Shown piece after piece: positions 5,145-12,340 of a stretch of DNA of 39,887 nt. Each line of letters opens with the position of its first letter. Positions within the stretch are counted from its first letter, which is position 1. Made by a program: the position numbers and the translations under genes. Below the pieces are notes generated by a model, which was not told the DNA's origin, made no database searches, and was given only the letters and a program-made list of their open reading frames with translations. The DNA is from Atractiella rhizophila. Taxonomy: Eukaryota. The stretch is from NCBI GenBank assembly GCA_021432655.1, contig MU271289.1:62001-101887 (forward strand), read 5' to 3'.

Positions 5145-6711
5145 ATGAATTCCAGTGGCATCAAACTTTTTAGTGGGACCTCGCACCCCGAACTTGCCAA
5201 CTTGATCGCCCGCCGTTTGGGCATCCCGCTTTCAAAGTCAACCGTTTCGACTTTACCTTCTGGCGAGCTAAGCATTACCCTTCGTATGGTGTTTTCATCG
5301 TCAAGCCTGAGCTGACTTTTCTATTCTGCAGACGAGAGTGTTCGAAATGCAGATGTCTACATTTTATGCACTTCTTCTTCTCCTATTACCCCTACCAATC
5401 GGTCTCTGTTTGAGCTCCTCATTATGATTCATTCCGCTAAGATAGCATCGTATGTCTGTTCCTCCTTTTCTTGACTTAAACTCAGTTTGACCTTTTTTTT
5501 ACCACACAGGGCTCATCGAATCACTGCCCTTCTTCCCATCTTCTCCTACGCTCGACAAGATAAAAAGGATAAATCCCGTGCTCCTATCACCGCCAAGCTA
5601 GTTGCAAACTTGATTCAAGGCGCAGGAGCAGATCATGTCATCGTGCGTCTTGGCGAATGCTGAATTGTCATTGTTGACAGGCCTGGGCGGCAGACGATGG
5701 ATTTGCACGCATCTCAGATCCAAGGATTCTTCTCCTTGCCAGTTGACAATCTCTATGCCGAACCAACGATGTTAAATTATATCCGATCCACAGTCGATTT
5801 GGAAAGAGCGGTTGTCGTTTCTCCCGATGCAGGAGGAGCCAAGCGGTTGGTATTCCCCTTGTCGAGAAATGCGTACGTGCTAACACAGACGATTTGTTCC
5901 TCCGCATGAATAGGGCAGCGTCCATAGCTACTCATTTAGGCATCGAATTTGCCTTGTTTCACAAGGAGAGGAAGAAGGCCAACGAAATTTCCAGGATGGT
6001 TTTGGTCGGTGATGTGAAAGGAAAGACTGCGATCATGGTCGACGATATGGTCACCTTCTCTGCTTCTTCCCCAAAGAATGAGCAGATCTGTTGATGGACG
6101 GATATGGCTAACAGGCGGACACTTGCGGTACTGTTTGTCAAGCGGCGAGACACCTGCAAGAAGCCGGTGCCACAAGCATCATCGCACTTGTGACACATGG
6201 CATCCTCTCAGGTACGTCTTTTCCCTTCCCTTCTCTGCCTGGATGATACAGGCTTCCATGGGAATAGGGAAAGCGATCCAGAACATTTCCGCATCTCCTC
6301 TCTCCCACGTTGTTGTTACAAACACCATCCCTCAAGAGGCTCACCTCATCGCTTGTCCCAAGCTCGTGGAGTTAGACATTTCTCATGTGCTTGCGGAAAC
6401 CATCCGGCGGTCCCATTACGGAGAATCGTATGTCTTCTCCTTTCCGCCCCATCCTCAAGAAAGGTGAAAATGGCGACAGGATATCCTACCTCTTCGATGC
6501 GGTACCGTTCTCTGAGAATACCTTCGGAAATCAAGGCCGCAGTCGTAGCTCGACGATGGGATTGAGCGTAGCAAGCTCGGAGGGGAAGGAGATGGTGGAT
6601 GGACTCGCACTCGGAGGTGCAGAGACGGGAGAGGGAGAAAGCGGGTTTACGATCAGGACCTTGCATGACGAGAAGGAAAAGGTGCCTGTCAAAGTAGAGG
6701 GTGGATTGTAA
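5145..6711 (+). CDS. PRS: Ribose-phosphate pyrophosphokinase (PRPP synthetase), multi-exon
   Basis: [93 protein letters not shown](I)SYLF. Confidence 0.97.
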
Positions 6712-7032
6712 GGCTCACATTATATAAGCGTTGATGAATAACGGTGTACTTGTATCTGTCTCAAGGGATTAATAGAATTTGATTACATTTCAGCTCGAAC
6801 TCGAACTTTCCTTGCAACGGCTACGAAGTCATTCCAATGCTCCTCTAGACTAGTGTCCCTAGCCACCTTCACTTAGAGATACGAATGCTGGGGATTTCTA
6901 GAGAATAATGTACTCCACCCCCAAACAACTAGTGCTCCGCGTTGGAAAGTGAAAGCTATAGTTCCATATTCATGTCTCTGTGAAACACTATCACCTTTCA
7001 AGCATGCATAGCTGTCAAGAAACTCACTAGAA

Positions 7033-9764
7033 CTACTCCCCAACAAGCCGTAATCGATTTTTGACCATTTCTCTCCGACTCCAATGCTCATCGCCGGCAA
7101 GAAAATCTGCCCTGACGACTTTCCCCCTCCTTAATACCCTCCCATTCCGTTCCCATTTGACATATACTCCTTCCCTCTTCCCATCGTAGAAGGCGGAAGC
7201 CTCTTCCGTCATGTCTTTGAGCTTTTGATTGAACGGAATCGTCTTCGCACGCAGAATAAGAGGGACAGCCCTGATACCTTCTCCTGCCTCTTCGTCCACG
7301 TGTGTATCCCTCAGTAGATCCTCAAGTAATTCTCTTGCATACCAAGTGTCGTCTTTCCGGTCATACAGGTCGAAAGCATAAAACCAGTCCTCGAGCCTGT
7401 CATATTGAATGCTGTGTTTCGCGACGAGCCATTCCCCGAAGAGAATGTAGCGTTCGAGGAAGGTATCATCTCGACCGAGGATTTTTTGGAGTTGACATGA
7501 ATGGGTGTGAAGCCATGAGGAAATGAGAGAGAATTGGGGGTGCTCCCCTGAGTGGATGTAGTGTGAGCGATTCTGGATACGAATTCCTCCAGAAGACGAG
7601 AGAGAGAACCCAAGCTGAGCCCCATCAACCTGTCCCCAACACAGTTCATTAATGCTACTTCGAACAAAGGACTAGCCACCTTTTCAGTGATGACTAATTC
7701 TGTACCATCCTCTAATTTTTCATTGATTTCAGCGTCTACCAGATCATCTTGCCCCACCGCGCCAAGGTCCAAAAGGTGGGCCGTCCTAGGAAACTTGAAA
7801 AATGCTATCTCGCCTCCATTACCCCCAAGTAATCTGACAACCTGCTCCGCCTGCTCCATGCTCCTCACAGTGATTACAGCTTTCCAGCCTTCGGCGATGG
7901 TTGGTCGCTCCAGCATTTTCGCGAAAGACCTAATAGCTACCTCCACCCTGTTCCCCGGTTGGAGGGTCGGATGGCCGCTTCTTCTTTGCGCTCTTTGGAT
8001 ACACAGGTCAAGAGAAGGATAGAAGAATATGGTTACAGGCGTCCTCGCCCAAGTTGTTAGGGAGAGGATGCGTACCCTATCTACTCTAGAAGCATTCACG
8101 CGGTCGATAATAGTTTTCCTGCTGGACATTCTCGCCATGGAAGATTCGAGATCCCCTTTTCGGAGAGAAGAGGCTTCGAATCGTGCGTCATCACCGCTCA
8201 CAATCCTCCACCTGTCTTTAGCCTGGCAAGACCGGTTGAGACGTTCCCTCACCCAGCTCTTCCCGCTCCCAGGCAACCCAACAAGGACAAGCAGATCGAC
8301 CTCTTCTCCAACAGGAGGGAGTGTACCTTCAACCTCCAACTTTGAAGTAACAGCTGTCTCTTCAACAGTCGGAAGAGGGGGAAGGATCGATCCTGTCTTC
8401 CAAGCTCTCCTTTCGACGCGACGCACGAAATCTTCCTGCTCTGTCGTCTCGATCGATTCAGGCCTCAACTGTCTGAGTAAATCAATGGCCTGAGTGGCAG
8501 TCATTGCAGGTGTGGCGCTCCGCGACGATGAAGAGCCAGTACTTATTGGGAGTCCTGTGCCGTGCAGTGAAAGATAAGCGCCGAGAACAGCGCCAGCTCT
8601 GCCCTTCCCGCCTCCACAATGAACCAACACTCCGCCTTCCTCCTCCTCAACAGCTTGAATAAATCTGCGAAGGAACAGGTCAAACTGTTCCACTGATGGC
8701 GCGCGGTAGTTTTCCACTGGTAAATAAAGCCGCTTCATACAGGTTCCATCGAACCAGCGCTCCGGGAGTGGTTGCTCTTCTGTCAACGTAACAACTGTTT
8801 CGATGCCAATTGAACGAAGGAGGCGAATGCCTTGAGCATGACGAGGAGTAGACATGCCGTACAAAGTGAACGGGATGATAGGCGAGAAGAATCGAGGAAG
8901 TTCGTTCCAGTCTTCGTAGTATTCATCTCCACGATATGAGTTTACGGATGTGGGAAGCGAAGAGGATTGTTTTCTGAGTGTGCAAACGAGCAAGCGTCTG
9001 CGAGGTTCGCTACTTTGCGGGTAGTGCGGAGTGGTCAACCAAGCGTCGCGCACTATTCTCCTAACTTCCTTCTTCCAAGGACGCAATAAGTGCCTCCTCA
9101 CTATTCGATCCATGCATCCCGTCCCATCTTCGAGCATCGCATCCAGCTCTTCCTTCTCTTCCGTCGTAAATAATGGTGGAAGGGTAGGGCAGCGAACAAT
9201 GTGCTTCAGAGAGTACCGAGTGACCTTTTCTTCTCCGTGTGCCAAAGCAAAATGGAGCGCACGTCCATAAGCCAGTATTGAGATTTTCCCACCGTAGGAA
9301 TCTCCGAGACGTATCCATGATTTAGATGAAGATGGATAGAGTGAACAGAGCAAGTTACTCGCTTGTCGCTCGTATGGAGGAGTGAGAGAAAGCGCGTCTA
9401 GTTGACTTTCGGTCCAGGTGGAAAGGAACGGCCGCGACAGCGAAGAGGTGAGGCTCCAAGGCAATGGAGTGAGTTTGAGCTGACGACGGATATGGCTCCC
9501 AAACGCATAGAGCACTTGGTGTTCGTCTTTCAGCTGGGTCGTAACCACGTGATACGTTCCTCGAGCCGATAAAGCCTCTACGTCCTGCAAAATAGATTGC
9601 AGAACTCCCCTATCGCGCAATGACAGGGAAGACGCCTCAGAAGAGGTCAGGATGGTGAGATTTAACGGTGTGGCCGACGGAATAGAGGGGGCGAAGAGTG
9701 ATACTTCGCCAGTTATATTGGAAAAGGAGATGGCGCCGTCAGTTATTGTTTGGATTGCGGACAT
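7033..9764 (-). CDS. Multidomain RNA repair protein: degenerate 2H-like N-terminus, dual-specificity (CX5R) phosphatase, P-loop polynucleotide kinase and ATP-dependent RNA ligase; about 893 aa
   Basis: HCGGGKGR at 8598-8621; GLPGSGKS at 8256-8279 with IIDRVN and RAQRRSGHPTL; FFKFPRTAHL. Removing a 50-nt GT-AG intron (7630-7679) gives ligase motif I EKVDG, then QNRS, LFGEW, YAFDLYD, EGVYVK and RGKVVR, reading in frame into the 7033-7299 ORF. Confidence 0.92.
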
Positions 9765-10074
9765 ACTGGTCTATGTTACTAGAGTCGCCAAAAGGTATGG
9801 GACTAAGCGGATGAAAGATTGACGATACTTGAAGAGAATAGAAAAGAAGACAGGGAAGAGGCCTCAGAAGAGGTCAAGATGGTGAGATTTAACGGTGTGG
9901 CCGACGGAATAGAGGGGGCGAAGAGTGATACTTCGCCGGTTATATTGGAAAAGGAGATGGCGCCGTCAGTTATTGTTTGGATTGCGGACATACTGGTCTA
10001 CGTTACTAGAGTCGCCAAAAGGTATGGGACTAAGCGGATGAAAGATTGACGATACTTGAAGAGAATAGAAAAGA
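9622..10074. repeat. Tandem direct duplication (9622-9847 and 9849-10074, period 227 bp) of the first ~47 codons and upstream sequence of the RNA-repair gene
   Basis: Direct comparison shows 4 substitutions between copies. The ORF track shows MSAIQTITDGAISF... starting at both 9764 and 9991. Confidence 0.97.
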
Positions 10075-11256: not shown

Positions 11257-12031
11257 ATGTCAAACTACTACGAAAACAACATGCTGCCCGGTGTGCGCCG
11301 AATTGTCACGGGACACAATGCTGAAGGGAAAGCCATATTCATTCATGATGAAACTTTCAAGTCAGATCCAGTTGGACGATCGGGCAAAGTTGGATTTAAA
11401 GTGTGTCTTCTTCATCCGCACTTCTACGCAATTTAACGAACATTTATGATAGGCCTTGTATGAGACGGAAAAGGTGCCAGGTAAGGACCTGGGGGAGTTG
11501 TGTAATCCGAGATCAAGCATCTCATTCTGCCTTCATAGCAAACAACGATGATCCTTTCCACGACCCCATGTTTAACGATGTTAACGACATTGCCAACAAA
11601 GAAGGAACGATTTTGAGGATCGTCGATTATGCCCCCACGTCAAAAGATGACAAGCCATATGTCCACCGAACCGAAAGCGTAGATTATGGAATTGTCATGT
11701 CTGGAGAGATCACTTGCGTGCTTGACTCTGGCGAGGAGAAGATAATCCATGCAGGAGACGTCGTCATTCAGCGCGGTAAGTTCTGCGTCCTGCCATTCAC
11801 CTTGCTAAAGCAGCGCAATAGGAACATCTCATGGATGGATCAACCATGGAGAAGAGTGGTGCCGTATTATATTCACCTCCATCGGTCAGTATTCCTTCCT
11901 TCTCATCATCTGCTTTCACGCAAACCCTGGTTGCAGCTACGCATCCTGCAAGAATCGGGGATAAGGTACTTGGAAGGGAAGGCTACCTGCCAGAACATGT
12001 TGCAACAAAGGGCCACAAACCCCCAAAATAA
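11257..12031 (+). CDS. Cupin_2-type protein, copy A
   Basis: RRIVTGHNAEGKA, LRIVDYAP, HRTESVDYGIVMSGEI..LDSGEE..GDVVIQRG and, after an intron, TSHGWIN; ends GHKPPK*. Confidence 0.88.
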
Positions 12032-12340
12032 TTTCCTTTGTGAGTCGTCCTCGAAAAATACGGGACACACGTACCTTAGCTCGCTTTGTCTCAGTTGTAG
12101 CTTCAAAGAAGGAGTTGTGCAAGATTTTCGGTTTAGGGTCAACGATGATCTTGGTGTCTATAAAGTTCTAATGAAAATCTTTCAGTTACAAAACACTGGA
12201 ATATCTCAGGAGTTCTGCTCCGCTGTTTGATGTATGTTATTTCTTCCAAACCCCCGTGTAATGTTCTTGAATCAGCAGGATTAAACAATGCAAATCAGGG
12301 GAGGAATCAATCTAAAGACGTACCTTCAACCAGCAAAAAT

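Follow-up and report, generated by a model that had tools for sequence, protein, structure and literature searches.

Swiss Army Knife (SAK) proteins were reportedly introduced through the computational work of Burroughs and Aravind (Nucleic Acids Res, 2016). Two Pfam families carry the name, PF22784 ('Swiss Army Knife protein, DSP-PTPase phosphatase domain') and PF22547 ('2H-SAK, Swiss Army Knife 2H phosphoesterase domain'), and the domain order in the full-length relatives collected here is 2H-SAK, PTP-SAK, AAA_33 and RNA_ligase. The window analysed, i.e. the whole stretch of 39,887 nucleotides from Atractiella rhizophila (contig MU271289.1 of assembly GCA_021432655.1, positions 62,001 to 101,887 of the forward strand), possesses on its minus strand a gene at positions 7033..9764 encoding, from the N- to the C-terminus, a 2H phosphoesterase remnant, a TPR-like helical region, a cysteine phosphatase, a polynucleotide 5'-OH kinase and an RNA ligase. 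This gene encodes the SAK member of A. rhizophila, a multi-domain protein whose predicted activities, on a predicted RNA substrate, would probably heal and seal RNA ends. A first-pass annotation made from the letters of the DNA had read it as a single-chain phosphatase, kinase and ligase for RNA repair, distinct from Trl1 and reminiscent of the SAK proteins. The motifs on which that reading was built (HCGGGKGR, GLPGSGKS, KVDG, GEW, FDL, EGVYVK and RGK) are all present in the translations of this one gene, KVDG across a splice junction, and the three domain calls were borne out by Pfam and by profile searches, with fold searches for the ligase.

Family membership and domain architecture

Pfam was run on the exons and on the spliced 893-residue protein, with hits taken at E<=0.01. 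The modules of the protein are as follows:

9447..9758, minus strand: 2H phosphoesterase remnant, residues 3-106 (hhalign against relatives; both HxT histidines replaced, N35 and S104)
9015..9428, minus strand: TPR-like helical repeat region, residues 113-250 (AF2 model, fold matches)
8424..8897, minus strand: cysteine (DSP-type) phosphatase, residues 290-447 (PF22784 PTP-SAK, 1.3e-46)
7839..8303, minus strand: P-loop polynucleotide 5'-OH kinase, residues 488-642 (AAA_33, 1.6e-6, with profile and pairwise alignment)
7036..7799, minus strand: ATP-dependent RNA ligase nucleotidyltransferase domain, residues 656-893, interrupted by an intron (PF09414, 7.9e-30 on the spliced protein)

Within the spliced protein, the Pfam matches covered residues 290-447 (PF22784), 491-617 (AAA_33) and 689-866 (PF09414, RNA_ligase), and the E-values of the phosphatase (1.3e-46) and ligase (7.9e-30) are strong enough that these domains are not due to chance. 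The PTP-SAK match reached 158.9 bits against a cutoff of 27, spanned profile positions 1-153 of 153 and had its CX5R motif intact, and it is followed in the same chain by a collinear kinase and a C-terminal PF09414 ligase, the order common to full-length relatives. The resemblance to SAK proteins seen at first pass is therefore an actual family membership, which is established here. An N-terminal 2H-SAK domain (PF22547) with two HxT motifs, a trait typical of the family without being universal, is absent from this protein.

Of 8000 candidates scored in a search with the exon 1 protein, 296 passed E<=1e-5. Those listed, 120 in number, were mostly 750-950 residues long, shared 32-44% identity and had the same Pfam set; their named sources included many Agaricomycetes, Kwoniella, Rhodosporidiobolus, Sporobolomyces, Pseudogymnoascus, the chytrid Blyttiomyces, and the bdelloid rotifers Adineta and Rotaria. 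The family is large: it counted 421 representatives at E<=1e-30 when 1.84 billion cluster representatives were searched exhaustively. The two rotifer genera possessed full-length SAK proteins as well as 577-residue forms without the N-terminal region, and one SAK fragment was named from Phytophthora cactorum.

Catalytic columns were counted in an alignment of 32 family members. Thirteen positions were invariant (C383, R389, K502, D525, R555, N557, R591, R595, D697, E848, K853, R863 and K865, each 32/32), and K695 and E761 were each kept in 31 of the 32, establishing that the catalytic residues of the phosphatase, kinase and ligase are retained. As judged from these comparisons, the A. rhizophila protein is an ordinary member of an already catalogued family and stands out in one respect only, its dead phosphodiesterase.

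Gene structure and transcript evidence

The SAK gene runs on the minus strand from an ATG at 9762-9764 to a TAG at 7033-7035 and has a single coding intron. Its structure was compared with a deposited protein (P0003, 'hypothetical protein BT69DRAFT_1296205 [Atractiella rhizophila]') and with contigs from public sequencing runs; ten runs shared words with the window, and four of them (X10, X3, X6 and X1) were compared by contig.

7680..9764, minus strand: coding exon 1, residues 1-695 (translation; equal to residues 1-695 of P0003; X10 contig without a joint here)
7630..7679, minus strand: coding intron of 50 nt (gene-strand borders GT..AG; absent from the X10 contig)
7033..7629, minus strand: coding exon 2, residues 696-893 and stop (translation 7036-7629, 198 residues, beginning VDGAQLGFS; ligase motifs Ia to V)
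6978..7027, minus strand: intron of the 3' untranslated region, 50 nt (GTGAGT..CAG; begins 5 nt past the stop; removed in X10 and X1 contigs)

The 3' end of exon 1 is the codon of the motif-I lysine (AAG, 7680-7682), the peptide ending in VITEK, and the coding intron follows directly, such that splicing joins VITEK to VDGAQLGFS and creates the motif I EKVDG. Without splicing, the frame ends at a stop at 7311 and every ligase motif past the lysine is lost. In the open reading frame listing, the gene accordingly appeared in two parts: a stop-to-stop frame at 7311-9770, which holds the ATG at 9764, and a separate frame at 7033-7671, which holds the ligase motifs. The spliced product of 893 residues is identical, letter for letter, to P0003.

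Run X10, which shared 0.81 of the words, yielded a 3263-nt contig (depth 87) spanning 7028-7627 and 7678-9847. Its joint omits exactly 50 nt, CT..AC on the plus strand, the coding region being otherwise free of joints, and it differs from the window at 14 places. Runs X3, X6 and X1 yielded 1, 2 and 4 contigs of 151-220 nt, none of which reaches the coding intron. At position 7028, the X10 contig and one X1 contig run on into 6948-6977 of the window, and a second 50-nt intron therefore lies at 6978-7027. A contig lacking two canonical gene-strand introns is most simply viewed as a transcript, the kind of run not being on record for X10. Gene structure and splicing are thus established, and the 50-nt intron placed after the motif-I lysine by the first-pass annotation is confirmed by its GT..AG borders, the identity to P0003 and the X10 contig.

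The RNA ligase module

The nucleotidyltransferase motifs I, Ia, III, IIIa, IV and V were all present in the spliced product (K695, R716, E761, FDL at 781-783, E848/K853 and R863/K865) and were kept in 31-32 of the 32 family members. About 25 residues follow motif V, leaving the protein with neither an Rnl2-type C-terminal domain nor an OB domain. Exon 2 alone matched Pfam RNA_ligase at 2.9e-26, and when searched alone against PDB sequences it matched no ligase.

A ligase-only profile (A2) was built from 30 sequences of the exon 2 search. Against the PDB, it matched NgrRnl (E 4e-6), Aquifex 3qwu (E 6e-6), the Palaeococcus Rnl 8uce (E 1.8e-5), Pab1020 (E 1.4e-3) and T4 Rnl2 (E 7.9e-3). The AlphaFold model of exon 2, which does not include the first 40 residues of the domain and K695 with them, was confident, with a predicted local distance difference test score (pLDDT) of 89.2 and a predicted template modelling score (pTM) of 0.87. 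In Foldseek, NgrRnl entries occupied ranks 1-13 (best 5.7e-5), followed by REL1 and T4 Rnl2. NgrRnl also led the Z-scores that an all-against-all aligner gave for this model: NgrRnl (Z 13.2, root-mean-square deviation 3.1, 166 aligned), T4 Rnl2 (Z 12.5 and 12.4) and REL1 (Z 11.9) came ahead of MthRnl (Z 9.2), T4 Rnl1 (Z 9.1), DNA ligases (Z 9.0 or less), Trl1 (Z 8.9), the Pnkp ligase domain (Z 6.0) and the C12orf29-type ligase (Z 3.8). The module is predicted to be a minimal Rnl2/Rnl5-like RNA ligase.

Among proteins of near-equal length, the exon 2 search returned 51, which were partial SAK models and free-standing proteins of 225-250 residues with 32-42% identity, one of these minimal ligases being named from the bacterium Pontiella desulfatans. 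Together with the occurrences in rotifers and Phytophthora, the free-standing ligases hint, at the sequence level, at a horizontal spread of the family and a bacterial origin of its ligase module.

The polynucleotide kinase module

The kinase possesses the P-loop GLPGSGKS (K502), D525, a DRxN motif and an RxxxRxxHPT motif. The NCBIfam model of bacterial Pnkp (TIGR04075) matched residues 488-642 weakly and with its kinase part, at 22.9 bits against a cutoff of 750. A family profile of 32 members (A1) was searched against the PDB, with 60 of 95 matches listed. The best of these were an RNA kinase of Rhizopus azygosporus (9d8a, 7.9e-30) and a related chain (9drz, 4.6e-29), followed at a distance by the kinase domain of Clostridium thermocellum Pnkp (7e-14), mammalian PNKP (7e-12) and Pnkp1 (1e-6); none of the 60 listed was a kinase chain named Trl1. 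In the pairwise alignment with 9d8a, GLPGSGKS, D525-D526, DRxN and RxxxRxxHPT fell on shared motifs, and these residues did not vary among the 32 aligned members. According to PMC11571804, both RNA and DNA with a 5'-OH are substrates of the Mucorales kinases, which use GTP preferentially and depend on an aspartate after the P-loop; this residue aligns with D525. On the strength of the profile matches, the Mucorales splicing kinase may belong to the clade of SAK-type kinases rather than being derived from Trl1.

The cysteine phosphatase module

The catalytic cysteine C383 (8616-8618) lies in the P-loop HCGGGKGR, and the extended motif HCGGGKGRAG was invariant in the 32-member alignment. The best solved matches were 25xa ('dual specificity protein phosphatase family protein'), human DUSP23, a designed archaeal-type PTP and SsoPTP.

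The decayed 2H module and the TPR-like region

The fourth module of the relatives, a 2H phosphoesterase, had been overlooked at first pass. In all four relatives scanned, PF22547 matched at about residues 10-124 (1e-20 to 9e-24), with the motifs YHITL and FHITLS. In the A. rhizophila protein, the Pfam 2H domain found no match in the N-terminal 125 residues alone, even at E<=10, and a custom 2H profile found none either. An hhalign comparison with a profile of 23 relatives with intact 2H motifs showed residues 3-106 to be collinear (probability 65%, E 6e-5), pairing PLNLTILT with PYHITLLT and PLPWSLT with PPKxFHIT. Judged from these replaced motifs, the 2H module is a catalytically dead remnant.

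Loss of the 2H histidines is not confined to this protein. In the 32-member alignment, the two columns hold histidine in 24 and 23 rows. When the custom profile was run on 260 relatives, 196 matched at E<=1e-3, of which 154 kept both histidines; the other 42 lacked one or both in the alignment, 17 of them showing only a gap at the first motif that may reflect cut gene models. The 64 relatives without a strong 2H match were mostly short, with 14, including the A. rhizophila protein, of at least 784 residues. Read from these alignments, decay of the 2H module is recurrent in the SAK family, with the A. rhizophila copy at its far end.

In an AlphaFold model of residues 1-260, pLDDT was below 50 for residues 1-30 and patchy up to residue 110, and no 2H fold was found for these poorly modelled 110 residues. 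Residues 113-250 were modelled with pLDDT mostly of 80-98 per 10-residue block, with a dip to 68-78 around residues 191-220. The best fold matches of this helical region were TPR proteins (Z 8.0, root-mean-square deviation 2.2, 80 aligned), and the SAK family profile touched consensus TPR chains in the PDB; Foldseek on the N-terminal model gave nothing at E<=0.001. Because Z-scores up to 8.0 are within the range of common helical arrangements, 'TPR-like' describes the modelled shape only.

Proposed mechanism and alternative explanations

A mechanism can be proposed by analogy with established knowledge of T4 Pnkp/Rnl2, Trl1 and 2H enzymes, and the RNA heal-and-seal function and biological role suggested here depend on that analogy. 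The sequence would begin, in typical SAK proteins, with the 2H domain opening a 2',3'-cyclic phosphate. On an endonuclease-cut RNA, the kinase would phosphorylate the 5'-OH end and the cysteine phosphatase would strip the 2'- or 3'-phosphate, producing a 2'-OH,3'-OH end. The ligase, adenylylated on K695 (lysyl-AMP), would then join the 3'-OH to the 5'-phosphate, and the product would be an ordinary phosphodiester without a 2'-phosphate, unlike that of the Trl1 route. As both 2H histidines are gone, the A. rhizophila copy is predicted to depend on another enzyme for opening the ends beforehand, unless its phosphatase can cope with cyclic ones. An anti-ribotoxin role is plausible purely as an inference.

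Several observations weigh against an RNA healing and sealing function. The closest solved phosphatases (DUSP23 and archaeal PTPs) are named as protein phosphatases. Moreover, in the alignments to 25xa, DUSP23 and ShufPTP, N352 faces the aspartate of their 'PDF' loop. That aspartate is the general acid of the cysteine phosphatase superfamily and is missing from members acting on RNA 5'-triphosphates. This position is Asn in 29 of 32 members, including A. rhizophila, and Asp in three. An asparagine there is unexpected for the expulsion of a ribose hydroxyl, and the substrate of the phosphatase is predicted at most; read from the alignment, N352 would not disprove a role at 2'/3'-phosphates. In the ligase, motif I reads KVDGAQ, with Gln700 (7615-7617) where 31 of 32 relatives have Asn and where NgrRnl has Ser at the aligned position. 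With both 2H histidines replaced and the module undetectable by Pfam, the step that opens cyclic ends is missing here, which makes it doubtful that the A. rhizophila copy could repair 2',3'-cyclic phosphate ends in the 'self-contained' manner envisaged at first pass. Run X10, for its part, is not recorded as RNA. Finally, a literature search, which left subscription papers outside its scope, found no biochemical study of the SAK family, in keeping with the first reading, and no mention of the Pfam SAK domain names.

The asparagine at the general-acid position also favours the main alternative, a rather improbable one, in which the same SAK protein uses its phosphatase on phosphoanhydrides (5'-triphosphate or 5'-diphosphate RNA) or on a substrate other than nucleic acid, and not to heal 3' ends. 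The metazoan capping enzyme triphosphatase, baculovirus BVP and PIR1/DUSP11 are cysteine phosphatases of RNA 5'-triphosphates that likewise lack the general-acid aspartate, and the lysine of the P-loop (CGGGKGR, 32/32) suits a polyanionic substrate, without specifying which. The 5' ends would then be prepared in two ways, by kinase and by phosphatase, and only pre-existing 3'-OH ends would be sealed. Most relatives, however, fuse an upstream 2H domain, and the 2'- or 3'-phosphate that this domain leaves must be removed by a phosphomonoesterase for an Rnl2-like ligase to work; moreover, RNA triphosphatase structures are absent among the 60 of 95 PDB matches listed. It is very unlikely that the protein processes and joins DNA ends as a PNKP-like healer fused to a DNA ligase. 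Many relatives are named 'ATP dependent DNA ligase' by their sources, the family kinase profile matches mammalian PNKP at 7e-12, and Mucorales kinases act on DNA besides RNA, as stated in PMC11571804; yet the Pfam match is to RNA_ligase and not to a DNA ligase model, DNA ligase folds score no higher than Z 9.0 where RNA ligases reach 11.9-13.2, the OB domain is lacking, and the 2H phosphoesterase of the relatives fits 2',3'-cyclic RNA ends, which are impossible on DNA.

Slightly less probable still is that the gene encodes the tRNA-splicing and HAC1 ligase of the fungus, in place of Trl1 and not as an accessory enzyme. The Mucorales, whose splicing kinase is the closest solved relative among the listed matches, are fungi that depart from the canonical Trl1, according to PMC11571804, but the literature consulted gives Trl1-type enzymes as the fungal rule. 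The distribution of the SAK family is also patchy, covering, among the 120 relatives listed, many Basidiomycota, one genus of Ascomycota, a chytrid and bdelloid rotifers, and its members have repeatedly lost the 2H histidines, a pattern of an accessory and not of an essential gene.

Within the favoured reading of an RNA end-healing and sealing protein, a further proposal is put forward tentatively, and it is doubtful in its full extent: SAK proteins might provide a 'clean-junction' RNA repair in fungi, in which a phosphatase without the usual general acid, the first of its superfamily to do so, heals 2'/3'-phosphate ends and the Trl1 route through a 2'-phosphate and Tpt1 is bypassed. The repeated 2H decay, seen in this protein and in at least 20 of 196 relatives, would then mean that the phosphodiesterase is dispensable and that cyclic ends are handled by the phosphatase or another enzyme. 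Should the predicted activities prove real, many fungi, and bdelloid rotifers as well, would possess a second, independent heal-and-seal enzyme beside their splicing ligase, built of parts unlike those of Trl1, T4 Pnkp and RtcB. Biochemistry would then define a new clade of RNA ligases, show the cysteine phosphatase fold in a new role and perhaps reveal a means of resisting ribotoxins, with the A. rhizophila copy, its three modules intact and its phosphodiesterase apparently dead, as a natural experiment.

Duplicated 5' end and neighbouring genes

The 5' end of the gene lies within a repeat:

9622..10074, no strand: tandem duplication of a 227-bp unit, 2.0 copies, 98% alike (each unit made up of 84 nt of upstream sequence and 143 nt from the start of the coding sequence)

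A 64-residue frame (MSAIQTITDG...) begins in the upstream copy, and its first 47 residues are the same as those of the SAK protein. Transcription of both copies would turn the upstream ATG into the start of an upstream open reading frame. In the X10 contig, 9847 is followed directly by about 10075, corresponding to one copy of the unit; a strain difference is one possible cause, and a collapse or an artefact of the assembly are others. Fragments of a phosphoribosyl pyrophosphate (PRPP)-synthetase-like gene at 5747-6467 (plus strand) are convergent with the SAK gene, and a frame with a cupin domain lies upstream at 11400-12230 (plus strand); a functional link between these flanking genes and the SAK gene was not apparent.

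Comparison with known systems

Fungal and plant Trl1 (ligase, kinase and 2H phosphodiesterase) resembles the SAK proteins in having kinase and ligase joined in one chain, with a 2H domain also present in SAK relatives, a set suited to 5'-OH and 2',3'-cyclic ends. The domain order is reversed, however, and the SAK ligase sits at the C-terminus and belongs to the PF09414 type; its fold Z-scores are 13.2 to 11.9 to NgrRnl, T4 Rnl2 and REL1 against 8.9 to Trl1. Moreover, Trl1 requires a 2'-phosphate, whereas the extra cysteine phosphatase of SAK proteins implies its removal. The Pfam families of Trl1 had no match in the spliced protein at E<=0.01. The conclusion at first pass that the enzyme is not Trl1 therefore holds.

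T4 Pnkp with Rnl2 or Rnl1, and bacterial Pnkp, share the logic of a kinase and a phosphatase that together prepare a 5'-phosphate and a 3'-OH, which a classic ligase can then join. Bacterial Pnkp (kinase, metallophosphoesterase and ligase; Pnkp-Hen1) likewise has its ligase at the C-terminus, and the kinase domains are related (7e-14). The T4 and bacterial phosphatases are of the DxDxT or binuclear metallophosphoesterase type, whereas that of SAK is a cysteine CX5R enzyme. The A. rhizophila protein falls outside the bacterial Pnkp family, as its TIGR04075 score of 22.9 bits against 750 concerns the kinase part only and the ligase fold reaches Z 6.0.

The closest solved ligase folds and profile matches are those of NgrRnl (Naegleria gruberi, Rnl5), T4 Rnl2 and Trypanosoma REL1, with which all nucleotidyltransferase motifs are in common. 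The N-terminal OB module of Rnl5 and the C-terminal domain of Rnl2 are both absent from the SAK ligase, which is preceded by a kinase, and the sequence E-values of NgrRnl and Rnl2 to it are weak, 4e-6 at best. The Mucorales kinases MciKIN and RazKIN (PDB 9d8a) share with the SAK kinase the P-loop, the aspartate that activates the 5'-OH, DRxN and RxxxRxxHPT. They are free-standing, GTP-specific splicing kinases according to PMC11571804, whereas the SAK kinase is fused within a multi-domain chain.

The nearest system remains that of the SAK proteins with both SAK domains (PF22784 and PF22547), to which the A. rhizophila protein shows 32-44% full-length identity, the same strong PTP-SAK and the same order of phosphatase, kinase and ligase; it differs from them in having no detectable 2H-SAK, only a collinear remnant marked by N35 and S104.

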